A stretch of 63,484 bases of DNA, filler included, from Raillietiella orientalis (Eukaryota): the NCBI GenBank assembly GCA_036172245.1. It is 19 parts of 19 records of this genome, joined end to end, with 100 filler letters (N's around TTAATTAATTAA, not from the genome) between each part and the next. Parts side by side here need not be neighbours in the genome. Positions count along the whole stretch, not along the records: positions 60,582 to 63,484 come from JAYWIR010000387.1; 18 more parts are not named here. The stretch is one strand, 5' to 3'. This document shows positions 38,415 to 63,484 of the stretch, piece by piece. Each line of letters starts with the position of its first letter. Position 1 is the stretch's first letter. Position numbers and translations under genes: made by a program. The notes beneath the pieces are model-generated. The model saw only the letters and a program-made list of their open reading frames with translations, was not told where the DNA came from and made no database searches.

Positions 38415-41400
38415 GCAAAGTTGTCATTGCAGTGTATATTATAATGAAAAGAAAAGAAAGAAAAAAAGAAAAGAAAGAAAGAAAGTTTATTCAAAAGGAA
38501 ATTATCTCTTTACATCACAAGATATGCTCAATTTAGAAACTGTTATTTTCCAACCATCAACCTAATTCTTATTTCCTTGCGCCTCAACATTCATTAGTTA
38601 CGTTTCCTTTGCAGAGTCTGTCTAAAATGAAAAGCATATTCGTGCTACTTCGCGATAATGACTTCCTCGAAATCCGCAATGCGTCAAGAGGACATTCGCC
38701 TTTGTAACAAAAAAAAGAAATTAGCTGCTTTTTTGCCGATTCATACTAACAAAAGTGAATTTTTCGAAATGTCATTGCGCAATCGAAAGCAGTTATACTT
38801 TAGAACACGTATAATTAATTTCCTTCGACTCGTCAATTTTCCAGGATTTCAATTACATTATCGTTGAATGAAACTCTGATGAATCGGATAAATGAGTAGA
38901 CTACTTTCGAATTCTGCCTTTCTTTCCTGCTAAGTGCTATTCCCTGGCGATTAAAAAGAAAAACTTTTCCGTAATCACTTCAAACGTTAATCATACCGAA
39001 GTTCAAAGCATCATCGTAACATTCACACTTTGAAACAATAACCACCTTGAAATGAGCCGTTTTATACTTTTCTATATCCTCTTCTATTGACAGCGACACA
39101 CAGCACTACCGCAAAGTTGGATAGTACGTGAGGCATGCTTCTCTCTTGTACGGATGAGTCTATAAATAAGAATTCTGACAGCTTCTCGGCACTTCCAGAG
39201 ACAATTATATCGATCAAAGTACATTAATGCAGAGAAAGAATCGCACATTTTTGTTAACACCTGAGTGTAAACTCGTAATTGCGTAAACAAATGAATGGTG
39301 TGCCATCCTATTGCGTTGAAGTCACAAGACAAATCAATGCTTTCTTACTGGAAGGATATTTCTTGTCTTGATTGTGTGATCTCTTGAATGGAATGGATTA
39401 TATGCAGGACATCAAATATTTGGGATTAACTGCCTAGCTGCTACTGGCATCGTTTCTTGAGAGGACATGTGCGGCAAAGAGATGGATTCGTTTCTTCGAA
39501 TATTCGAATGAGAAAACATTTCTTCCACACAACGCCTGAATGAGTACAAGAACTTAAAGGAGTGGTTTGTGTTCCGAATGAGGAAGAGGGCACACGTAAG
39601 GTAGCCATCTTCATGTATCTTACGTAATTCTTTTGAATTTCTCTGCTATTCTCCCTATAATCCTTTCACTTCTGAGCGCCATTAGGAGTGCAGCTGCGCA
39701 TAAAGCTTGGTGGTTTAAGGTCAAAGCTTTCGAAGAGGATGCTATTTCTGATTACATTTTTTAATCCTAGATGAGCGCGACGGTCGCCGTTCGCGGCGCT
39801 GATCCGTCCGTAGTGCCATGGATCTGCGGGGCGTTCGTCATCCGCGGCGCTGATGCCGCTCGGCTTACCAAGTTCAGCGCCCAGTGGCTGTTCGCAGCGC
39901 TGATCCGCCGCTTCCCTTGCAGATCAGCGCTGCCGACCGCGGTCGCGGCGCTGATCTCGCCCAAGAATCCAAGATCAGCGCGTCGTTCGGCGGTCGCGGC
40001 GCTGGCAAAGTTGTCATTGCAGTGTACATTATAATGAAAAGAAAAGAAAGAAAAAAAGAAAAGAAAGAAAGAATGTTTATTAAAAAGGAAATTATCTCCC
40101 TAGATCACAGGATATGCTCAATTTAGAAACTGTTATTTTCCAACCATCAACCTACTTCTTATTTCATTGCGCCTCAACATTCATTAGTTACGTTTCCTTT
40201 GCAGAGCCTGTCTAAAATGAAAAGGATATTCGTGCTACTTCGCGATAATGACTTCCTCGAAATCCGCAATGCGTCAAGAGGACATTCGCCTTTGTAACAA
40301 AAAAAAGAAATTAGCTGCTTTTTTGCCGATTCATACTAACAAAAGTGAATTTTTCGAAATGTCATTGCGCAATCGAAAGCAGTTATACTTTAGAACACGT
40401 ATAATTAATTTCCTTCGACTCGTCAATTTTCCAGGATTTCAATTACATTATCGTTGAATGAAACTCTGATGAATCGGATAAATGAGTAGACTACTTTCGA
40501 ATTCTGCCTTTCTTTCCTGCTAAGTGCTATTCCCTGGCGATTAAAAAGAAAAACTTTTCCGTAATCACTTCAAACGTTAATCATACCGAAGTTCAAAGCA
40601 TCATCGTAACATTCACACTTTGAAACAATAACCACCTTGAAATGAGCCGTTTTATACTTTTCTATATCCTCTTCTATTGACAGCGACACACAGCACTACC
40701 GCAAAGTTGGATAGTACGTGAGGCATGCTTCTCTCTTGTACGGATGAGTCTATAAATAAGAATTCTGACAGCTTCCCGGCACGACCAGAGACAATTATAT
40801 CGATCAGAGTACATTAATGCAGAGAAAGAATCGCACATTTTTGTTAACACCTGAGTGTAAACTCGTAATTGCGTAAACAAATGAATGGTGTGCCATCCTA
40901 TTGCGTTGAAGTCACAAGACAAATCAATGCTTTCTTACTGGAAGGATATTTCTTGTCTTGATTGTGTGATCTCTTGAATGGAATGGATTATATGCAGGAC
41001 ATCAAATATTTGGGATTAACTGCCTAGCTGCTACTGGCATCGTTTCTTGAGAGGACATGTGCGGCAAAGAGATGGATTCGTTTCTTCGAATATTCGAATG
41101 AGAAAACATTTCTTCCACACAACGCCTGAATGAGTACAAGAACTTAAAGGAGTGGTTTGTGTTCCGAATGAGGAAGAGGGCACACGTAAGGTAGCCATCT
41201 TCATGTATCTTACGTAATTCTTTTGAATTTCTCTGCTATTCTCCCTATAATCCTTTCACTTCTGAGCGCCATTAGGAGTGCAGCTGCGCATAAAGCTTGG
41301 TGGTTTAAGGTCAAAGCTTTCGAAGAGGATGCTATTTCTGATTACATTTTTTAATCCTAGATGAGCGCGACGGTCGCCGTTCGCGGCGCTGATCCGTCCG

Positions 41401-41696: not shown

Positions 41697-44600
41697 GGTC
41701 GCAATCCTGAGACATGAAAATGGTTGGAAGCAATCTACTTCCACTTCCTGCATCCAAATAGAATCTTCAAAGTGGATCAAAAAAATTCCTCTATCTTTTC
41801 TATTTCCAATGTGGTGTTTTCCGTCCAAATCTCCGCACTTGCACCAAAACGACCATGGCCGGTTCCCGATGAATTCGGTCGCAATCCTGAGACATCAAAA
41901 TGGTTGGAATCAATCTACTTCCACTTCCAGCATAGAAATAGAATCTTCAAAGTGCATCAAAAAAATTCCTCTATCTTTTCTATTTCCAATGTGGTGTTTT
42001 CCGTCCAAATCTCCGCACTTGCACCAAAACGACCATGGCCGGTTCCCGATGAATTCGGTCGCAATCCTGAGACATCAAAATGGTTGGAATCAATCTACTT
42101 CCTCTTCCAGCATAGAAATAGAATCTTCAAAATGCATCAAAGAAATTCCTCTATCTTTTGTATTTCCAATGTGGTGTTTTCCGTCCAAATCTCCACACTT
42201 GCACCAAAACGACCATGGTCGCTTCCCGATGAAATCGGTCGCAATCCTGAGACATCAAAATGGTTGGAATCAATCTACTTCCTCTTCCAGCATAGAAATA
42301 GAATCTTCAAAATGCATCAAGAAAATTCCTCTATCTTTTCTATTTCCAATGTGGTGTTTTCCGTCCAAATCTCCGCACTTGCACGTAAACGACCATGGCC
42401 GCTTCCCGATGAATTCGGTCGCAATCCTGAGACCTGAAAATGGTTGGAATCAATCTACTTCCACTTCCAGCATAGAAATAGAATCTTCAAAGTGCATCAA
42501 AAAAATTCCTCTATTTTTTCTATTTCCAATGTGGTCTTTTCCGTCTAAATCTCCGCACTTGCACCTAAACGACCATGGCCGCTTCCCGATGAATTCGGTC
42601 GCAATCCTGAGACATCAAAATGGTTGGAATCAATCTACTTTCTCTTCCAGCATAGAAATGGAATCTTCAAAGTGCTTCCTAAAAATTCCTCTATCTTTTC
42701 TATTTCCAATGTGGTGTTTTCCGTCCAAATCTGCGCACTTGCACGTAAACGACCATGGCCGCTTCCCGATGAATTCGGTCGCAATCCTGAGACCTGAAAA
42801 TGGTTGGAATCAATCTACTTCCACTTCCAGCATAGAAATAGAATCTTCAAAATGCATCAAAAAAATTCTTCTATCTTTTCTGTTTCCAATGGGGTGTTTT
42901 CCGTCCAAATCTCCGCACTTGCACCTAAACGACCATGGCCGGTTCCCGATGAATTCGGTCGCAATCCTTAGACATCAAAATGGTTGGAAGCAATCTACTT
43001 CCACTTCCTGCATCCAAATACAATCTTCAAAGTGTATGCAAAAAATTCCTCTATCTTTTCTATTTCCAATGTGGTGTTTTCCGTCCATATCTCCGCACTT
43101 GCACCTAAACGACCATGGCCGGTTCCCGATGAATTCGGTCGCAATCCTGAGACATCGAAATGGTTGGAAGCAATCTACTTCCTCTTCCAGCATAGTAATA
43201 GAAACTTTAAAGTGCATCAAAAAAATTCCTTTATCTTTTCTATTTCCAGTGTGGTGTTTTCCGTCGAAATCTCCGCACTTGCACCAAAACGACCATGGCC
43301 GGTTCCCGATTAATTCGGTCGCAATCCTGAGACATGAAAATGGTTGGAAGCAATCTACTTCCACTTCCTACATCCGAATAGAATCTTCAAAGTGGATCAA
43401 AAAAATTCCTCTATCTTTTCTATTTCCAATGTGGTGTTTTCCGTCCAAATCTCCGCACTAGCACCAAAACGACCATGGCCGCTTCCCGATGAATTCGGTC
43501 GCAATCCTGAGACATCAAAATGGTTGGAAGCAATCTACTTCCAGTTCCTACATCCAAATAGAATCTTCAAAGTGGTTCAAAAAAATTCCTCTATCTTTTG
43601 TATTTCCGATGTGGTGTTTTCCGTCCAAATCTCCGCACTTGCACCAAAACGACCATGGCCGTTTCCCGATGAATTCGGTCGCAATCCTGAGACATCAAAA
43701 CGGTTGGAAGCAATCTACTTCCACTTCCTGCATCCAAATAGAATCTTCAAAGTGTTTCCTTAAAATTGCTCTATCTTCTCTATTTCCAATGTGGTGTTTT
43801 CCGTCCAAATCTCCGCACTTTCACGTAAACGACCATGTCCGCTTCCCGATGAATTCGGTCGGAATCCTGAGACATCAAAATGGTTGGAAGCAATCTACTG
43901 CCACTTCCTGCATCCAAATACAATCTTCAAAGTGTATGCAAAAAATTCCTCTATCTTTTCTATTTCCAATGTGGTGTTTTCCGTACAAATCTCCGCACTT
44001 GCACCAAAACGACCATGGCCGTTTCCCGATGAATTCGGTCGCAATCCTGAGACATGAAAATGGTTGGAAGCAATCTACTTCCACTTCCTACATCCAAATA
44101 GAATCTTCAAAGTGGATCAAACAAATTCCTTTCTCTTTTCTATTTCCAATGTGGTGTTTTCCGTCCAAATCTCCACACTAGCACCAAAACGACCATGGCC
44201 GCTTTCCGATGAATTCGGTCGAAATCCTGAGACATCAAAATGGTTGGAATCAATCTACTTCGTCTTCCAGCATAGAAATTAAAACTTCAAAATGCATCAC
44301 AGAAATTCCTCTATGTTTTCTATTTCCAGTGTGGTGTTTTCCGTCCAAATCTCCGCACTTGCACCAAAACGACCATGGCCGGTTCCCGATGAATTCGGTC
44401 GCAATCGTGAGACATGAAAATGGTTGGAATCAATGTACTTCCACTTCCAGCAAAGAGATAGAATCCTCAAAGTGCATCAAAGAAATTGCTCTATCTTTTC
44501 TATTTTTAATGTGGTGTTTTCCGTCCAAATCTCCGCACTTGCACCAAAACGACCATGGCCGTTTCCCGATGAATTCGGTCGCAATCCTGAGACATCGAAA

Positions 44601-44937
44601 TGGTTGGAAGCAATCTACTTCCACTTCCAGCATAGAAATAGAATCTTCAAAATGCATCACAGGAATTCCTCTATGTTTTCTATTTCCAATGTGGTGTTTT
44701 CCGTCCAAATCTCCGCACTTGCTCCTAAACGACCATGGCCGCTTCCCGATGAATTCGGTCGCAATCCTGAGACATCAAAATGGTTGGAATCAATCTACTT
44801 CCTTCTCCAGCATAGAAATAGAATCTTTGAAGTGCATCAAAAAAATTCCTTTTTCTTTTCTATTTCCAATGTGGTGTTTTCCGTCCAAATCTCCGCACTT
44901 GCACCAAAACGACCATGGCCGGTTCCCGATTAATTCG
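41697..44937. repeat. 180-bp satellite array, 18 monomers
   Basis: Exact 180-bp periodicity, e.g. gaattcggtcgcaatcctgagac, with no indels. Confidence 0.98.
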
Positions 44938-48371: not shown

Positions 48372-48900
48372 CGCCGCCGCCGCGGGCTCAAACCTCGTGG
48401 TTGCCGCCTTTACCGCCGCAGGCGGCACCCTCGGCATCGCAGCCGCAGGCGCGACCTTCTTCGCCGCGGGCACGATCCTCGGCGTCGCCGCCGCGGGCAC
48501 GACCTCCGCCGTCGTCGCCGCGGGCACGACCCTTGGCATCGCCGCCGCCGGCGCAGCAAAGCCCGCCGCGGGCGCGATCCTCGGCATGCCTGCCGCCACC
48601 TCGCCGTTGCCGCACGTTACCTCCATGGCTTCCATGGGGGACGATGGCCTCATTCCTCCTTTAACTCCAGATGCCTGCATCCTGGCAGCTGTTGCGGCTG
48701 CTCGGGACAACTGCAGGACTCCCACCGTTGATTTCTCGGCGCTGCTGCTGATGATGATGATGGTCCTTGGTTGCACTCTTTCCACACTGGCGTTCACTCA
48801 AACACTTGCCCTCTCAGGGCACTCAAAATTTGCCTTGGCAGTGGTTTTAAACACTGCCTTGGCGGGGTATTGTGTATAGTTTTAAACTAGCAATAATCAC
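48372..48900 (-). mobile_element. Family F element, 5' UTR and ORF1 N-terminus (right boundary approximate)
   Basis: MPRIAPAA/MPRVVPAA/TPRIVPAA repeats homologous to 7230-7500. Confidence 0.8.
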
Positions 48901-51347
48901 GCCTCCCTTTCGTTCAGCGGCGGCGATACCGCCCGTGCGCAAGGCTCTCGCGATCGCTAAAGGAGTTGCTTACGCCTCCGTGGAGGCAGCACTCCAAGAG
49001 GCAGCGAAGGCAATGCCTCTTACATCCGTGGAAGCAGCGCCATCTCAGGATGGCAAAGATAACTGCGACGCGAACGAAGACGGCTGGATGCAGGTGAGAA
49101 AGATCATTAGAAAGAAACCATCAAGGTCTTCGCAGCTCTGTGTGAAGGTGAGTGGGCGAAAGAAACCCGCGAAACCTTCCCAGAAAAAGATTGCGATTCT
49201 TTTCTCCTGCGCAGTTGTCCTCTCGTGGTTGGAGCGGGAAGCTGCTGCTGCGGCTAAAAGGACGAAAGTCCCAGCCGCAGTTGCAGAAAGCGCTAGGAAA
49301 CAGGCAGCGAACGATTTCCCTAATTCCGGGAAACAGCAGCAGCGCCTGGCAAGCCCTGGACTGTCGGATTCTGATCCAGAGTCCTACAGAAAGAGCACAC
49401 AGCGCGACAACCGCCCAAAACCGCGCAATCGCCTCCCGAAGACCCGAAAGCGCGTGGTTGCCAAGGAGGAACTGTTGCTGGGGAGCAAAGAGGAGGAAAA
49501 GGACCTCACCTCTGAGCTACCGGCAACAAGCAGTGCGGCTTCGAATGGAGATGTCCAGTCTCCGAGATCGACCGCTCTGTCTCGTGACCACTCGCCGGAC
49601 AAGGCGAGAAATCTGTGCTCACCTTCCCAGCCTTAATGCAGGAAGTCGCTTCTTTTCGTCGATTCAGCGTAGCCTGTTGGAACGTCAATGGGCTGCGCAG
49701 GGACGGAAAGAGGCGCGACGTGTCAGACACCCTGCGACATTTCGATTTGGCGATCCTTCAGGAGATGCATTACATCTCCGATTCGGAGGTTGCGGAAATC
49801 GAACAGCGCGCGGGTGGCACCCTGTACTGGCGAGAAGGTTCTGCACAATCGTGCGGAGTCGGTTTTCTCGTGTATAGTAGGATGGCGGGAGCGGTGCGCA
49901 GCGTTCGATTCGACCAGGGAGGGCGAATGGGCCAACTTGTACTCAAGTGGTCAGATTCAATCGACCTCGTCGTAACGAACGTCTACGCTCCGAGCGGCTT
50001 TCATCGGCGTGTCGAAAGAATCGAGTTCTTCGACGTGCTGGAGAGTCAATGGCTCAGAAACTCCGGAGCCAGAGTGGCGCATCTCGTCGCAGGGGACTTC
50101 AACGTCCACCTGCTTTCCAACGAGACGCGGTCCCTGGCGGAACGGTCGCGGGTGGAAGAGGCATGCGCGTCGGTGCACGCGCGTAACTTGGAAGCCGGCG
50201 AGCCTGGACTGGGAAGGTGCGTGGATCACCTCTACCTCGATGAACACCTACTCTCGCGAGTGGAAAGGAGAGGCAGAGTGCCGTCCACGTTATCGGACCA
50301 TGATAGGCTGGAGTTCGAGCTACTCCCGCCGGGCAAGGGACCTCCAAACAATGTTTGGAGGATGCCGGCGGATTGGCTGAGTCACCCGGAAGCGGCGGAG
50401 CATCTTTGCCAGTTCCTTCGCGGCTTTGCCATCCGGGAACTCGCAGACTGGGACCATCTTAAAAGATCGGTTCGCGAGTTTTGCGACCGGTTCCCCCTGC
50501 ACCTGCTACCACGCAGCTTCGGGGAAGGCGTGACCAATAGCAGAGCATTTCTGCAGGCGCGCACCTTCTCGAGACGTGCGGAAGTCCGGCAACTCGCAGA
50601 GTACAAGGCAAGGGCCGAGCGCCAGGTCTGGCCGTCTCTGGAGCGGCTATTCTGCTCGACGACCAAGGCCGGGAATGCACGCCTTGTGCCGAAGTGCGGC
50701 GAGCACTAAAGCGTCACTTCTTCTTGCTCTACGCTAATTTCCCGACGGAAAGAGTCCTCTCCGAACTACTTTTGCCGCGGGCTGCACATGGCATCGGCGA
50801 GGAGGAGCGCGATCGAATCGACGAGCCCTTCACGTTGGAGGAAGTTTCTTCCGCCATCGCAGGACTCAAGAGACGGAAGACGCCAGGTGAGGACGGACTG
50901 CCCGCGGAGTTCTATCAGAGCTTCGCGGCGGAACTCGCCCCACTGGTTCTTAGAATCTCGACGCTGATGAGGGTGACGGGCGATGTCCCTTCTTCCTTCC
51001 GCTCAGCAAGGGTGCGTCTCCTTCCGAAAGGAGGGGATCTGCGCCAACTCAACAATGGCGTCCGATCACATAAGTGAATACGGGCGTCAAGTTGTTTTCG
51101 AAGCTGTGGGTCACGCGTTTAGGGAAAGTCGCGGAGTCCGTGGTAAGCCCAGAGCAGTCTTACGCTGTACCGGGTAGATCCATGGATGCGAACCTTCTTT
51201 TCGCGCGCACCTGGTGGCAGCTTCAAGAGCGCGTTGCGGCGGATAGCCAAACAGCGGCAAGACCTTCTGCCGACTGCGTGCGCCAGTGCGGACGGACGGA
51301 AGAAAGGCCGGGAGCCTTGGCACTAGCAGTAGATTTGCACAAAGCAT
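48901..51347 (+). mobile_element. Tx1-like element, ORF1 C-terminal part (stop 49636) and ORF2 from 49636 (complete APE, RT to DLHKA), frameshifted
   Basis: ACWNVNG, LQE, VYAP, GDFN, VDH, SDH, KTPGEDG, LLPKGGDL, LAVDLHKA. Confidence 0.92.
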
Positions 51348-51447: not shown

Positions 51448-54415
51448 AAATTCCTTTATCTTTTCTATTTCCAATGTGGTGTTTTCCGTCCTAATCTCCG
51501 CACTTGCACGTAAACGACCATGGCCGCTTCCCGATGAATTCGGTCGCAATCCTGAGACCTGAAAATGGTTGGAATCAATCTACTCCCTCTTCCAGCATAG
51601 AAATAGAATCTTCAAAATACAGCAAAAAAATTCCTCTATCTTTTCTATTTCCAATGTGGTGTTTTCCGTCCAAATCTCCGCACTTGCACGTAAACGACCA
51701 TGGCCGCTTCCCGATGAATTCGGTCGCAACCCTGAGACATGAAAATGGTTGGAATCAATCTACTTCCACTTCCAGCATAGAAATAGAATCTTCAGAGTGC
51801 ATCCAAAAAATTCCTCTATCTTTTCTATTTCCAATGTGGTGTTTTCCGTCCTAATCTCCGCACTTGCACGTAAACGACCATGGCCGGTTCCCGATGAATT
51901 CGGTCGCAATCCTGAGACATCAAAATGGTTGGAATCAATCTACTTCCACTTCCAGCATAGAAATAGAATCTTCAAAGTGCATCAAAAAAATTCCTCTATC
52001 TTTTCTATTTCCAATGTGGTGTTTTCCGTACAAATCTCCGCACTTGCACCAAAACGACCATGGCCGCTTCCCGATGAATTCGGTCGCAATCCTGAGACAT
52101 CAAAATGGTTGGAATCAATCTACTTCGTCTTCCAGCATAGAAATTGAATCTTCAAAATGCATCACAGAAATTCCTCTATGTTTTCTATTTCCAATGTGGT
52201 GTTTTCCGTCCAAATCTTCGCACTTGCACCAAAACGACCATGGCCGGTTCCCGATGAATTCGGTCGCAATCCTTAGACATCAAAATGGTTGGAAGCAATC
52301 TACTTCCACTTCCTGCATCCAAATACAATCTTCAAAGTGTATGCAAAAAATTCCTTTATCTTTTCTATTTCCAATGTGGTGTTTTCCGTCCTAATCTCCG
52401 CACTTGCACGTAAACGACCATGGCCGCTTCCCGATGAATTCGGTCGCAATCCTGAGACCTGAAAATGGTTGGAATCAATCTACTCCCTCTTCCAGCATAG
52501 AAATAGAATCTTCAAAATACAGCAAAAAAATTCCTCTATCTTTTCTATTTCCAATGTGGTGTTTTCCGTCCAAATCTCCGCACTTGCACGTAAACGACCA
52601 TGGCCGCTTCCCGATGAATTCGGTCGCAACCCTGAGACCTGAAAATGGTTGGAATCAATCTACTTCCACTTCCAGCATAGAAATAGAATCTTCAGAGTGC
52701 ATCCAAAAAATTCCTCTATCTTTTCTATTTCCAATGTGGTGTTTTCCGTCCAAATCTCCGCACTTGCACGTAAACGACCATGGCCGCTTCCCGATGAATT
52801 CGGTCGCAATCCTGAGACATCAAAATGGTTGGAATCAATCTACTTCCTCTTCCAGCATAGAAATAGAATCTTCAAAATGCATCAAAAAAATTCCTCTATC
52901 TTTTCTATTTCCAATGTGGTGTTTTCCGTCCAAATCTCCGCACTTGCACCTAAACGACCATGGCCGGTTCCCGATGAATTCGGTCGTAATCCTTAGACAT
53001 CAAAATGGTTGGAAGCAATCTACTTTCACTTACTACATCCAAATAGAATCTTCAAAGGGGATCAAAAAAATTCCTCTATCTTTTCTATTTCCAATGTGGT
53101 GTTTTCCGTACAAATCTCCGCACTTGCACCAAAACGACCATGGCCGTTTCCCGATGAATTCGGTCGCAATCCTGAGACATCGAAATGGTTGGAAGCAATC
53201 TACTTCCTCTTCCAGCATAGAAATAGAATCTTCAAAATGCATCAAAAAAATTCCTCTATCTTTTCTATTTCCAATGTGGTGTTTTCCGTCCAAATCTCCG
53301 CTCTTGCACCTAAACGACCATGGCCGGTTCCCGATGAATTCGGTCGCAATCCTTAGACATCAAAATGGTTGGAAGCAATCTACTTCCACTTCCTGCATCC
53401 AAATACAATCTTCAAAGTGTATGCAAAAAATTCCTTTTTCTTTTCTATTTCCAATGTGATGTTATCCGTCCAAATCTCCGCACTTGCACGTAAACGACCA
53501 TGGCCGCTTCCCGATGAATTCGGTCGCAATCCTGAGACATGAAATTGGATGGAATCAATCTACTTCCACTTCCAGCATAGAAATAAAATCTTGAAAGTGC
53601 ATCAAAAAAATTCCTCTATCTTTTGTATTTCCAAAGTGGTGTTTTCCGTCCAAATCTCCCCACTTGCACCTAAACGAACATGGCCGGTTCCCGATGAATT
53701 CGGTCGCAATCCTGAGACATGAAAATGTTTGGAATCAATCTACTTCCACTTCAAGCATAGAAATAGAATCTTCAAAATGCATCACAAAAATTCCTCTATC
53801 TTTTCTATTTCCAATGTGGTGTTTTCCGTCCAAATCTCCGCACTTGCACCAAAACGACCATGGCCGTTTCCCGAAGAATTCGGTCGCAATCCTGAGACCT
53901 CGAAATGGTTGGAAGCAATGTACTTCCACTTCCTGCATCCAAATAGAATCTCCAAAGTGCTTCCTGAAAATTCCCCTATCTTTTCTATTTCCAATGTGGT
54001 GTTTTCCGTCCAAATCTCCGCACTTACACCTAAACGACCATGGCCGCGTCCCGATGAATTCGGTCGCAATCCTGAGACATCAAAATGGTTGGAATCAATC
54101 TACTTCGTCTTCCAGCATAGAAATTGAATCTTCAAAATGCATCACAGAAATTCCTCTATCTTTTCTATTTCCAATGTGGTGTTTTCCGTCCAAATCTCCG
54201 CACTTGCACGTAAACGACCATGGCCGCTTCCCGATGAATTCGGTCGAAATCCTGAGAGAACAAAATGGTTGGAATCAATCTACTTCCACTTCCTACATCC
54301 AAATAGAATCTTCAAAGTGGATCAAAAAAATTCCTTTATCTTTTCTATTTCCAATGTGGTGTTTTCCGTACAAATCTCCGCACTTGCACCAAAACGACCA
54401 TGGCCGTTTCCCGAT
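51448..54415. repeat. 180-bp satellite array (same family as 41697-44937), about 16.5 monomers
   Basis: Same monomer and exact periodicity. Confidence 0.98.
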
Positions 54416-57571: not shown

Positions 57572-58488
57572 TGTTGACACTCGATGGTCCGCTCGCCGCA
57601 CCTCCTTTCATTCCTTGGTTCCTCCATTTATTGATTTTGCAGGAAGCGATTTTTACGTTCCTGGCACGGAGGAGGCCATGAATGTGTTCTTGAAGACCCT
57701 GCACTTTTGCCGAGGTGATCACAGTTGTCTCCTAGTTGTAGCGCGTTTTTCCCAGGAACCGTTTTCGGTTTCCAGTTCTGTTGTGTGTTGTCTGTGACCT
57801 CAGCCCTCGCAGACGATGACTCGGCTGCCACCAGTCCGCAGAGAAGCCCGTCGAACTCCACGAAGGAGTGGGTTTCGCCCACAGCGCATGCACCGTAGCG
57901 AATTTCGGGAATTCGTTGCGGACGCTCTCCTTAGTCATCTGCAGCGTATTTCCGGTCAGATGGACCACGACCTAGCGGTTCTCTGTAACCGGGAAGAGCT
58001 AACTTTACATCATAACGGAAGTCCCGAGAAGTCTCTGCGCTAGAGTTGCCTCCTTGTAGATTACTTCTGAATATTAGCATCTCTTCAAATGAACATGGCC
58101 AGAAGCTCCTTCGTTTGAACGTCGAGAGCGGGCACTGATTGCAAGAAGGCGAGCGCTCTCGGGGAAATATAAATTTCCTACCTTATATGGGAAAGGTGAG
58201 TTCCACTCCTTCTCTGAGTAGCATCTCGTTTCTGCCTTGTCCGCATGCGTAGGCGCCGCAGCTACGGCGTTCCAAGCCCTCGCTTGCGTGAGGGGCGAAT
58301 CTGTGGGGCGGATGCCCCACTTTTATAGCCTCTGGGAACGGCGTTCTCATCGTCCCCTGGCCTTCGCTGATGGTGGTGTCGGGTATCACTGCCCTTCCCA
58401 CTACCAAATCCACTCACTGCACTCACTGAACGGAAAAAAAAAGAACCACAAACTAGGGAGCGATAGAAACATACGTCCTTTGCCCGCG
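57572..58488 (-). mobile_element. Decayed Tx1-like 5' end and ORF1
   Basis: VHLTGNTLQMTKESVRNEFPKFATVHALWAKP homologous to the other ORF1s; GGACGTATGTTTC at 58478-58466. Confidence 0.8.
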
Positions 58489-59666
58489 AGAGGTTTCTTG
58501 GAGCTGCAAATTCGCGAGACAGGAATGGAGGTGAACAGGGCGAAGTCGTCCGTCGTAGCAGTCTGTTCGATGTGGGCAGGGTAGCAGGACTGGATCCATT
58601 TTGCGATCCCCACGGTCCGGTACTCTGAGTACCTCAATGTGCCGTTGGGGGACTACTCTTCGGCGGAAGCGTGGTCCAGCTGCCTCCAGAAGGCTAAGCC
58701 GGCGATCGGCCTGTTTCTGAATGGCAGGTTTTTCATGCTGGAACGGGCTGCGGTGTGGAACACGTTCGTGACCCCCTTTTTTGCCCTTTGCTTTTTGTTT
58801 GTCCCCCACCGAGAGGTGTAAAGAAGCGGCTGGAGCTACAGCTTAGTAGAGGGCAAGCGTCCTCGAATATGTGGAGCACCAGCTGGTGCGATCCGGCACG
58901 ACATCTGGTCAAGCGGGCCATCGGCTACGCGGGACTGTCTTCGCTCCTGGAGTGTCGACGCCGGCGCAATGTGACCCGATGTGGTCTGCAGCTCCGGCGA
59001 GTGGCCAAGCTTACCAGGGCGAATACCTCTTTCTCCTGCCAGCCCTCGAAAGGTAGTGCCTGGTTACAGTCAAGCGTTCTCTCGTGGGCGCAGAAAAAAG
59101 AAGCGAGCCCAGAGTTGCGGCGGAGACTGCTGCACTCCTGTTCCAACAACCGCTCTCTGTAGGACGTCATCGTGCAGCGCACCACGCGTGCATGGGCAGA
59201 AATATCTCCCTGGTCACAGCTCTGCCCTACCACAGGGAACACCTGGCCAGTAGTCAGCCGGCCAACGTAGGAATGCGTCCGGGAAAACTTCGTGGCCTGA
59301 GGTTTCTGCTGAATCACTCTTTGGAAGGCGTCATGCAGGACCACAGGAAGTGGAATCGCCTAGCCACCACACCCCTTGGCGCAGCGCTGTCTACCCTTAG
59401 AACAAGCAATGGCAGTTGCCTACCGGCGGGGTGGGGATCCTGCATCATTGCAGGAGAGACCAACTCTTTGGTGGCTGGAAGGAAAAGGAACTAACGCATG
59501 CCGCCACTCTTCCAAATCTGGCTTCTCCGATGGAGCGAACTCCGAAGCTCCCCGAAGAACAAACATGTGGTCTCTCCCGCCTGTTTAGACAACTCAGTGC
59601 TTCCCTTACGAAGAAAACAGGGCGTGCTGCTGTTTTTGCACTGGGGACTCCAGTGCAAAGACGCTG
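58489..59666 (+). mobile_element. Decayed ORF2 fragment (post-YADD to LHWG), host
   Basis: TGMEVNRAKSS, PLGDYSSAEAWSSCLQK, ERAAVWN, LHWGLQC remnants. Confidence 0.82.
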
Positions 59667-60481: not shown

Positions 60482-60581
60482 NNNNNNNNNNNNNNNNNNN
60501 NNNNNNNNNNNNNNNNNNNNNNNNNTTAATTAATTAANNNNNNNNNNNNNNNNNNNNNNNNNNNNNNNNNNNNNNNNNNNN

Positions 60582-60603
60582 GAAAACACGTCCAACCTGT
60601 AGC
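60582..60603 (-). promoter_or_regulatory. 5' tip of an antisense element with a DPE-like GGACGTG motif
   Basis: gaaaacacgtcc plus 10 nt, same geometry as 1369-1390; GGACG(T) fits the DPE consensus RGWYV(T). Confidence 0.65.
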
Positions 60604-62799
60604 ACGCAAGGCGGTCGACTGCGTAAACCAGAAGCTGCTTTTGGAGCTTATGGAACGCCTAGTGTTCCCGTCGCATCTCCTGCTGTATTTGCGCGAGTGC
60701 TGGCGCCACTCGCTCTGCATCACTTTCAGCGGTTGCCGCGTGTACGGTATTCCCGTGCGTAGGGCATACGACAGGGCGACAGCTTAAGCCCGTTGCTCTA
60801 TAGCATCTTCTTTAAGTTGGAGCTGAGAGCGTGCAGGCTGATTCTGTCTCACTTGCCATGCTGCTCCCCTGGTACGCCCGCCATTGCCGCCTGAGGTGAT
60901 GACCTGCTTCTTCTGCTCACCATGTCCACCCCGGCGTTCAGTTTCGAGGATTTCTTCGACCTGATTCGTCGAGGGGCGGGCGTGAGCCTGAACAGAGAGA
61001 AGAGCGTGTTCGCTCTTGTGGGTGCGTCGTGGGAGGGGCAGTCCGACTGGATCCGCCTGGGGATCCCCACGGGCGGGTACTTTAAGTACCTTGGCGTTCC
61101 GTTGGGCGCTGTCGGGGGAGCCTATGCTAGGGCGGACTGTCTTCAGAAAGCAGAGTTAACCATCAGTCCGTTCATTAACGGCAAGTTTACCCCTCTTGAA
61201 CGGGCGACTATTTGAAACACTTTTGTGGCCCCCCTCCTCCGTCTTCTGTTTTTCGTTTTGGACCCCCCTTATGCGGCGAAACCGCGGTCTAAACCCCTGC
61301 TCAGGAACGCTCTCTGGGGTCCGGCGAGATCCAGGATCCGCGTTAAAAATTTGGTTGCTCCGCGTCGGTATGCTGGTTTAGGTATCCTGACAATGGAGCG
61401 AATCGTCCTGCAGGTGCAGTTCCGACTGCTGGCACTGTGTGCCCAGCTTTGGACATCCGCCCTTTGTGTGCCAGCACGCATTCTCCTGCGGAGATGCGCC
61501 GGCAGCGGAGGATCTCTCTCGCTTTTGGCGGGCACACAATACAGGGAGCGTTGTTTTGGGTTTGCATTGCGGCAGTTGACCGCACTTCTGGAAGTTCATT
61601 CGTAAATCTCCTGCCGCCCAATGAACTTTGAAGCTTGACGGGAGGAGTCTGTTGAATGCTGGTCGGCGTTCCAAGGAATACGCCCTGAATATCTTCGCTG
61701 CCTGCGCCAATTTTTTCCACGATCCTCGGAAGAAGTACTGCAGGACGAGGTGAAGTATTCTACCCTGGCTTCCACGCTTCTTTCCGCAGCGCTTTTATGC
61801 CCTTAGTGCAGGAAACGGCAGTTGCCAACCTGCGAGGTGGGAGGTTTCCTGCACGATAGCGGAAAAAACCAAACTCATTGGCGCCTTTAAGACGAGCGAG
61901 TTGGCGGACCGCGCCACTCCTCGTGTTACTTCAAAGGGACTCCTCCGGAGGGCACAAGAACTTGGTGTCACCCCCGAAGAACTTGTAGTCCCTCCACAGT
62001 GTGTCGACTATTCGCTGCTCCCCCTTGCTTGGAAAGAAGCCCTGTTGCTTCTCGTTCACTGGGGTTTTCAGTGCAACGAGCGTTGGCATCGTGACTCCGG
62101 GGGACTTGCGTCTGCGATCTGCGTTCGGTGCGGATCGACGGAGTCGATTTCGAACCTACTTCTGGACTACGGTGTCTTACAAGAACCGTGGCGCAGACTG
62201 GCAACAGAACTCTCGCATCCCGTGGACACCGCAAGAGACTTGCGGCGACGATTCTTCACGGGGAGCGTTCTGTGTATAAGCGCAAGGATTGCAATCATCG
62301 GTTGCATACGCGCGATAGTTTCCGTCCGCCAGGCGCTGATAGTCAACAAGCAGCACCAAGAGGTGATTGGCAAAGCATCTTTCTATATGGAAGGAGCCGC
62401 CCGATGGCCTCAAGTGACCGAGGATACAATAAGGGATCTCGCTAGCATACGCCGGCGGTTTACAGACGCTACCCAACAGCGCACCCGGTGAACCTTTCCC
62501 CTCGAACCCTTCAAATGTTTTTTTTTTTCCTTTTCCGCCCTATTAGGCTCCGGAACATTTTAGGTGCTCTCTTTTTGAATCCCCGTGAGTACGGAGCTCC
62601 ACCAAATACCCGTTACCCCTCTTTCCAAATTTATATTTTTGTTTGTTTTCCCTCTATTTCCTCATTGTTCTTGGAAGCGGTTTGTAAACCAAGCCTGTGT
62701 GCCGGTAACCTGTCTTTGCTCCTTGTCGTTTCTTTGGTTAGAGACATCGTCTTTGACCGGTTTATTTTTAGTAAACGCACCGGCGTGACTGGGTGAAAA
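60604..62799 (+). mobile_element. Diverged family D element, from RKAVDC to the 3' end; pseudogene
   Basis: RKAVDCVNQKLLLEL, QGDSLSP, KYLGV, CVRCG, stop 62491; degenerate AGTAAA-hairpin-GAAAA at 62770-62799. Confidence 0.88.
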
Positions 62800-63484
62800 A
62801 TTTCAATCTCCGCCTTCTAACATTTGAGCCGGAAACACAAGTGAACGCGATGAACGAGTTGTGCGCCGCCATCCGTGCGCGCAACTTGTTCGCTTATGAG
62901 GGGGGAATGGACCGCAGCATCGAGCACGTCTTCCTTGAAGCTGAAGTGTGTTCACGGGTCGGCAAACGGGGGAGGGTTGCGTCGACGTAGTCGGACCATT
63001 CGCTATTAATTTTCGAGATGCAACCTCGCGAAAAGGGACCGCCATTTAGCGATTGGCGTCTGCAGAGAAACAAAACGCGACTTACAGGTGCGAAGGAACA
63101 CCTTCGGGAATTCCTGAGAGGAGTCACGCTCCAGAGTCTCACGGATTCGGACCTTGTCAAGGCCTCGGTCCGGGAGTTTTGCGAGCAGTTCTCGCTGGAC
63201 CGCCTGCTTCCCGAATTCGGCGAGGGTCCCCGCAACCATGGGGCCTTTTTACAGGCTCGTAGTTACGAGGGAACCCCTAATGTCCGTCGCCTGGCCGAGT
63301 ATAGCGCCGGGGCCGAACGCCAAGCCTTGAAATCCGGGTCGGCCAGCTTGCTGGACGACCAGGGCCGGGAATGTTCGTCCCCGGCGTCGGTACGGCATCT
63401 CGTGCGGAGTTTTTATTCCTCCCTTTACGCCAGGGAGCCCCCGTTTCGGAACGCCTCTCGACGCATGCTTCCGGATGGCGACCC
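62800..63484 (+). mobile_element. Family B-like ORF2 fragment starting at the (G)DFNLR codons
   Basis: FNLRLLTFEPETQVNAMNELCAA, homologous to the starts of the 24584 and 28036 copies. Confidence 0.9.

Follow-up and report, generated by a model that had tools for sequence, protein, structure and literature searches.

The 5' end of a LINE with a DPE-like octamer lies antisense in the reverse transcriptase gene of a second LINE in Raillietiella orientalis

Among the LINEs of Drosophila, Doc, F, G, I and jockey are described as sharing a downstream promoter motif, RGWCGTKY (A/G-G-A/T-C-G-T-G/T-C/T), at about +29 to +36 (PMC1636488). For Pr77 of the Trypanosoma cruzi element L1Tc, the account in PMC4748587 places a CGTG downstream element at +25 to +28, and mutation of this element shows that it is needed for transcription. 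Insertion at preferred sites within other mobile elements is reported for the Tx1 group, which contains target-specific LINEs in transposons, such as Tx1-Mar in Mariner-N4_AMi, along with others in Harbinger and LTR elements (PMC4494074). The site analysed here has a DPE-like motif at the start of a LINE and a landing site inside a second LINE. The 44 bases at 60582-60625 are the 5' end of one LINE meeting the reverse transcriptase (RT) gene of a second LINE, in which it is inserted antisense. An initial annotation had read these bases as a composite promoter, with the DPE supplied by the element and the initiator (Inr) supplied at exact spacing by the antisense strand of the target.

The window and its LINE family

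The window, i.e., the whole stretch of 63,484 bases from R. orientalis that was analysed, does not represent one locus. It consists of 19 small unplaced contigs of 2.9-3.5 kb in falling size order, joined by 18 identical 100-nt artificial linkers (N44-TTAATTAATTAA-N44). The last contig covers 60582-63484, and the flagged element is cut off at the first base of this contig, 60582, by the linker at 60482-60581. Most GC-rich contigs are pieces of diverged non-LTR retrotransposons, often one nested in another. The remaining contigs include a piece of rDNA, a U4 snRNA gene, a 180-bp satellite, and AT-rich sequence.

The inserted family is an APE-type non-LTR retrotransposon (LINE), with APE and RT domains in ORF2 and a CCHC knuckle in ORF1. 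ORFs of the window matched the endonuclease domain PF03372 (E-values of 1.8e-15 and 1.9e-10) and the RT domain PF00078 (E-values down to 4.6e-22) for ORF2, and zf-CCHC (E-value of 1.5e-05) for ORF1, while zf-RVT matches were weak, at 20.7-27.2 bits and under the Pfam cut-off of 27.5. Five of the nine 3' ends considered carry AATAAA and then a 25-nt stretch that includes a CCCGG/CCGGG hairpin and has TGAAAA as its last bases, and the other four show diverged versions of the poly(A) signal (a one-base variant) or of the A-run. The last base of the AATAAA precedes the 3' end of the element by 25 nt, and this hexamer is more simply read as a polyadenylation signal.

Protein searches returned a single close relative (69% identity), which is unnamed and without genomic context, and the best named matches, to fish, tick, and plant LINEs, were distant (30-31% identity). 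Together with the CCHC knuckle of ORF1, these distant named matches would be compatible with an L1/Tx1-like lineage. Additional copies were sought by ORF1 alignment against metagenome contigs, which yielded 110 pattern matches of which none was confirmed, and by an RT alignment search, which yielded 80 loci, every one at 31% identity or less; these were generic LINEs and were set aside. A look-up in an RT cluster atlas likewise returned generic RT clusters only. Across the whole window, no ribozyme family (HDV-like families included) was matched at gathering score or at an E-value ≤1, no conserved 5' fold was detected among four aligned 5' UTRs, and no ribozyme able to trim an upstream start was found.

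Junctions and target sites

A diverged LINE family, represented by five copies, has a sharply conserved 5' start formed by the octamer GGACGTGT; four copies carry this exact form and one the variant GGACGTAT. The number of GGACGTRT occurrences in the window (five, at 1380, 34788, 58478, and 60593 on the minus strand and at 17761 on the plus strand) is in itself unremarkable (2.17 expected, with 6 of 100 shuffles reaching five), so that the weight rests on the position of the octamer. In four cases it opens homologous 5' UTRs with an ORF1 start at +84 to +96: 1281-1380 (minus strand, contig 1, starting with GGACGTGTTTTC), 17761-17860 (plus strand, contig 6), 34689-34788 (minus strand, contig 10, whose end limits the flank to 13 nt), and 58379-58478 (minus strand, contig 18, starting with GGACGTATGTTT). 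The fifth octamer belongs to the flagged site, where the element is reduced to a 12-nt stub. The first 12 nt are identical at 9-12 positions in all 10 pairs of the five copies, the stub itself being identical to the 1380 copy at 12 of 12 positions and to the other three at 9-11. By comparison, the 25 nt upstream of the motif are identical at 2-7 positions, which corresponds to the random level, except for 13 of 25 between the two copies at KAFD-type sites (see below). Conservation of the LINE begins at the motif itself, rather than about 28 nt before it, with only 0-11 unassigned nt ahead. The likeness to a DPE is real and even better than initially stated: the octamer matches RGWCGTKY at 8 of 8 positions in four copies and at 7 of 8 in the fifth, this consensus being that of Drosophila LINEs. 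The end of contig 18 (...GGTGTTTTCG) also resembles a 5' end; it lies in apparent coding sequence and was not counted.

At the flagged junction, the minus strand reads gcagtcgaccgccttgcgtgctacaggttGGACGTGTTTTC, followed by N. The element contributes 12 conserved nt only (60582-60593, minus strand, GGACGTGTTTTC, with the octamer at 60586-60593). Alongside are about 10 nt more (60594-60604, minus strand), a 10-11-nt segment, either filler or unconstrained leader, that can be assigned to neither host nor element. Host RT codons R-K-A-V-D (the last with 2 nt), up to the presumed nick TCGA^C, follow on the plus strand at 60605-60618, presumably as the 5' copy of a target duplication, in register with 3' junctions at 1391-1405, 3573-3587, and 15841-15855. 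They begin a degenerate host ORF2 (60605-62479, plus strand) that extends from the RT to the C-terminal zinc-binding region, corresponding to reference ORF2 residues 337-964 (50-58% identity by tblastn), with a first in-frame stop at 60785-60787. Within this remnant, the Asp-Cys codons GAC TGC (60617-60622) sit in ...RKAVDC... / ...RKAVDCVNQKLLLEL..., and their complement is the proposed initiator GCAGTC. When re-read on the minus strand, the geometry initially described for this junction was reproduced: A60620 as +1 places GGACG at +28 to +32 (60593-60589), exactly 27 nt downstream, and GCAGTC (60622-60617) is both the complement of host Asp-Cys codons and a match to TCAKTY at 5 of 6 positions.

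Three 3' junctions of the family lie directly after the host-sense TTCGA of H/R-K-A-F-D codons (KAFD site). These are found at 1391-1405 in contig 1, at a contig start (3573-3602, minus strand), where host GCACAAAGCATTCGA (3573-3587) is followed by the 3' end of the element, and in contig 5 (15826-15855, plus strand), where the last base of the tail ...GGGTGAAAA is 15840, host codons H-T-A-F-D follow in antisense from 15841, and host RT homology runs on for about 900 nt past the junction. All are in register with five intact copies, and a fourth contig (48372-51347) ends at ...DLHKA. The host at the 60593 junction resumes as CGC AAG GCG GTC GA^C TGC in this same register, and 25 nt separate the nick position from GGACG at both 60593 and 1380. 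In contig 18, the junction falls instead in F-F-D-L-L codons (58479-58507, plus strand), with 8 unassigned nt, 16 nt of host RT, and a degenerate TTGGA^GCTGC. This site reads TTGGAGCTGC, 24-25 nt from GGACG, and in all seven intact copies of the window it reads TTCGA[C/T/G][C/T]TGC. The KAFD and FFDLL sites have the core TTCGA(C)CTGC in common. The sequence bearing the presumed endonuclease target is TTCGACTGC.

The element would lie antisense to the RT because TTCGAC spells Phe-Asp codons on the RT sense strand, and site choice and antisense polarity alike would thus be explained without a promoter. This target preference is drawn from junctions at or near contig ends, no single contig showing both ends of one insertion, and the target duplication is deduced from them. 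The element parts at the three KAFD 3' junctions are 81-86% identical.

Contig 1 contains a head-to-tail pair of elements, with exactly 25 nt from the tail of element A to the GGACG of element B. This spacer (1381-1405) is made of 10 unassigned nt (1381-1390) and 15 nt of host H-K-A-F-D codons (1391-1405), and is followed by the 3' UTR of the upstream element A (1406-1628, minus strand), which ends in AATAAA and a 25-nt stretch with the CCCGG/CCGGG hairpin and TGAAAA at its close. Such an arrangement would be expected after two insertions at one site, if the 5' copy of the duplication restores the target. The AATAAA of element A falls at -29 to -24 relative to the putative +1 of element B; its use as a TATA box, i.e., promotion in tandem, was considered and judged less likely than a role as poly(A) signal.

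The bases between host and motif differ among copies. Compared with the host codons upstream of KAFD, the 10-14 nt beside the element scored no better than expected at 1380 (score reached by 916-1723 of 5000 shuffles) or at 60593 (4393-4800 of 5000), and the first 10 nt at 58478 were no more host-like than shuffles (4844 of 5000). At 17761, antisense host RT (D-A-K-L codons, 17652-17760) adjoins the motif with 0-2 nt between them (67 of 5000 shuffles reaching the score). A 25-bp duplication without leader in all copies was rejected by these shuffle tests at 1380, 60593, and 58478, and holds only at 17761. The initial description of the motif as lying 10 nt inside the element is reasonable for these three copies, in which 8-11 nt cannot be attributed to host and may or may not be part of the element. 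No source for these 8-11 nt was found elsewhere in the window, and an 8-nt match between the flank of the 34788 copy and RT codons is within chance. They could represent either filler acquired during 5' joining or an RNA leader under no constraint. A total of 24-25 nt that hardly varies across three junctions slightly favours a fixed leader, and the 17761 copy, which has none, points the other way.

Promoter spacing or insertion geometry

To score the initiator, hexamers were compared to TCAKTY, the consensus used in the initial annotation, with A(+1) set exactly 27 nt upstream of the motif. Four of the five junctions could be evaluated in this way, as the 34788 junction runs into the linker at -27. 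The match decreased from GCAGTC at 60593 (5 of 6) to GCAGCT at 58478 (58507-58502; 4 of 6), AAAATC at the tandem 1380 copy (3 of 6), and CCCACA at 17761 (1 of 6), so that a match of at least 5 of 6 was obtained at a single evaluable junction. A hexamer this good with A at +1 is found by chance at 0.87% of window positions, and among the 65 RGWCGTKY motifs of the window, the one at 60593 is alone in having it at the exact spacing. CA occupies exactly -28/-27 in both solo insertions at TTCGA-type sites (60593 and 58478), and at 58478 the -27 base is indeed the A of GCAGCT in host sequence, as had been reported. The 17761 copy, already noted initially as non-conforming, has its CA off by one. Two of the four evaluable junctions consequently depart from the proposed pattern, the tandem 1380 copy having no Inr and the 17761 copy neither leader nor Inr, and the generality of the Inr-DPE claim rests on two junctions.

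We favour, with a probability of roughly 0.55, the reading in which an APE-type LINE has inserted antisense into the RT gene of a related LINE, the flagged site being its 5' junction and the initiator spacing a by-product. In this scenario, the endonuclease would nick the sense strand of the RT gene at TTCGA^C(C)TGC, fixing the antisense orientation, and a target duplication of about 15 bp would leave an intact site on the 5' side, at which re-insertion would build head-to-tail arrays such as the one in contig 1. The copy of about 15 nt of target, together with 8-11 nt of filler, would hold GCAG at 24-25 nt from the element. The CTGC half of the target is complementary to GCAG at -29 to -26, so that insertion geometry alone can produce the exact spacing: with GCAG(T/C) at -29 to -24 provided by the target, the "exact Inr-DPE spacing" would amount to duplication length plus filler. 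Transcription would then start at the first G, or up to about 10 nt upstream of it, and the conserved 5' block would serve as the kind of internal promoter known from other LINEs, with the GGACGTGTTTTC...GCTCC block as its probable core. Against a by-product stands the combination of an 8 of 8 octamer with CA at -28/-27 in both solo insertions, which is more coincidence than one would like.

That same combination counts in favour of a composite promoter. If GGACGTGT were a true DPE, TFIID could set the start on the host A of GCAGTC or GCAGCT, 27 nt upstream, and the resulting RNA leader (2 nt, the target copy, and about 10 nt) could anneal to the next target and in this way direct 5' joining. 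The octamer match in all five copies, the exact position of CA in both solo insertions at TTCGA-type sites, and the constant distance of 24-25 nt from nick site to motif at three junctions would all fit such a model. It also has precedents, in the DPE-type elements described for LINE promoters of insects and T. cruzi (PMC4748587) and in the target-derived leaders proposed to guide second-strand priming of R2 (PMC3774820). We nonetheless regard it as quite unlikely: known DPE-containing LINEs have the motif about 25-36 nt inside the element, whereas here it forms the first conserved bases; host sequence adjoins the motif at 17761, with 1 of 6 matches at -27, and the tandem 1380 copy offers AAAATC; the contig 18 copy is preceded by local F-F-D-L-L sequence instead of a KAFD-type leader; and the consensus is taken from Drosophila LINEs, while this organism may not use DPEs. 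The target motif suffices to explain all of the Inr-like bases, and the pattern needs no promoter. A fuller version, in which a LINE lineage homes antisense to TTCGA^C(C)TGC of its relatives' RT genes, uses the octamer as DPE, and is guided by a target-derived leader, appears to us distinctly improbable as a whole.

Two further readings were considered. Random nesting in LINE-dense heterochromatin, with shared junctions as old events spread by duplication, would agree with 5' junctions at no fewer than three different RT positions, with the 3' flanks of contigs 7, 10, and 17, which differ, with a junction of contig 19 that lies in sense orientation in the APE region, and with the near-identity of contigs 8 and 9 (95% across 3.35 kb). 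Through segmental duplication, the three KAFD 3' junctions could also partly share descent, given the similarity of their element parts. This reading is unlikely in our view, as two insertions at one nick position are required for the A - 25 nt - B tandem and the KAFD and FFDLL sites have a core in common, while for shared descent the host sequences of contigs 1 and 5 agree at only 17 of 26 nt at the junctions, less than the 83% of the adjacent element. The flagged junction lies 12 nt from a contig end, which would suit an assembly artefact (a chimeric contig end) or a rearrangement. Twin priming of L1, in particular, can leave a 5' end and a truncated RT head to head. Contigs 1, 6, and 18 show this same anatomy internally, and 3' junctions at matching positions occur on independent contigs, which makes an artefact or a 5' inversion very improbable.

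Taken together, these observations suggest that a target motif and a duplication length can mimic core-promoter spacing. The LINE family, of which few members have been sampled, appears to favour a short motif in the RT genes of related LINEs, to insert there antisense, and to build arrays. The octamer conserved at its 5' end coincides with the DPE consensus of insect LINEs. If the composite promoter were true, landing site, transcription, and 5' joining would be linked in one 27-nt geometry, an outcome comparable to that which R2 attains via a ribozyme. If homing were true in its fuller version, the RT genes of relatives would provide a self-renewing safe haven, with the target-derived leader guiding the next insertion.

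Comparison with described systems

HeT-A is said to promote in tandem, the 3' end of an upstream copy supplying promoter parts. In head-to-tail arrays such as the one in contig 1, an upstream 3' end could similarly supply promoter parts, but unlike for HeT-A, no copy in the window has a 3'-end tag of its neighbour at its 5' end. The likeness to jockey, Doc, F, G, and I of Drosophila, as these are presented in PMC1636488, lies in the fit of GGACGTGT to the DPE consensus and in the CA 27 nt upstream at two junctions. Those elements, however, have the motif inside, at about +29 to +36, and their own first bases as initiator, whereas here an initiator would come from the flank (PMC1636488). L1Tc Pr77 likewise has a conserved 5' block that contains a CGTG core, yet the described L1Tc start is the first base of the element and its motif is internal (PMC4748587).

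For R2, whose RNA is cleaved within upstream 28S rRNA sequence and so keeps a target-derived leader, the correspondence is one of concept: target sequence on the 5' end of the RNA is proposed to anneal to the target and thereby to yield uniform 5' junctions (PMC3774820). R2 differs in being co-transcribed in sense with its host gene and released by an HDV-like ribozyme, in the description given there, while the insertion studied here is antisense and no ribozyme was matched in the window (PMC3774820). A LINE targeting the RT genes of LINEs was not found described in the literature searched, a limited library with no TE database. With the Tx1 group, the present family shares the APE-type endonuclease and an apparent preference for sites within other mobile elements (PMC4494074). 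Where it departs from the Tx1 cases outlined in that source, the target is the coding sequence of related LINEs, namely the Phe-Asp codons of their RT, and this target is hit antisense (PMC4494074).

Element junctions in APE and a U4-linked LINE

A second recurrent junction was found at window positions ~62790-62800, where the 3' end of an element is joined in sense to the region encoding the APE domain of LINE ORF2, from about residue 170. The same APE point forms the start of three other contigs (21118, 24579 and 28036). Because contigs 8 and 9, 3.35-kb units that are 95% identical to one another, both start and end at these APE-junction points, the arrangement suggests either that 5'-truncated units are repeated in tandem or that insertions have a second hot spot there, with ...GATTGA^ on the host strand.

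A complete U4 snRNA (48809-48946, minus strand, 88 bits) lies immediately 5' of a LINE ORF1 region and shares its orientation (48372-48808; compare 7134-7490). The adjoining LINE belongs to a second family, very different from the main one and also represented in contig 3, which begins ~16 nt past the point equivalent to the U4/LINE junction. The LINE in contig 15 carries this U4-LINE unit inside its own ORF1, in antisense; the unit could correspond to a U4-targeting LINE, a chimeric U4-LINE retrocopy, or an snRNA-derived head.

Repeats, rDNA and an additional open frame

The window also includes a 180-bp AT-rich satellite, with 18 copies at 41697-44937 and 16.5 copies at 51448-54415 that match one another at about 91%; long "ORFs" within this satellite, together with the Pfam hits to them, are repeat artefacts. 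In AT-rich contig 12, an identical stretch present twice, at 38780-38800 and 40370-40390 (an offset of 1590 nt), indicates an internal repeat. Separately, the N-terminal part of the contig 6 element's ORF1 carries a 24/48-nt tandem repeat (~4-9 copies, 17927-18136), which comes just past an in-frame stop at ~17946.

An rDNA fragment (10704-14059) comprises 5.8S, an ITS2 of ~800 nt, and then the first ~1850 model positions of the large-subunit rRNA, which is much expanded and has a GC content of 66%. This fragment might serve for taxonomic placement of the organism. An open frame of 348 residues in an AT-rich contig (47226-48269, plus strand) has C2H2-like Cys/His pairs close to its N-terminus and no Pfam match, and is possibly the beginning of another retrotransposon ORF.

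AATAAA placement in the contig 1 tandem

Contig 1 contains two elements arranged head-to-tail. Relative to the +1 that the initial annotation proposed for the downstream element, the upstream element's AATAAA (within 1406-1461, minus strand) lies at -29 to -24. This AATAAA is probably just a poly(A) signal; its spacing to the putative +1 is that of a TATA box.
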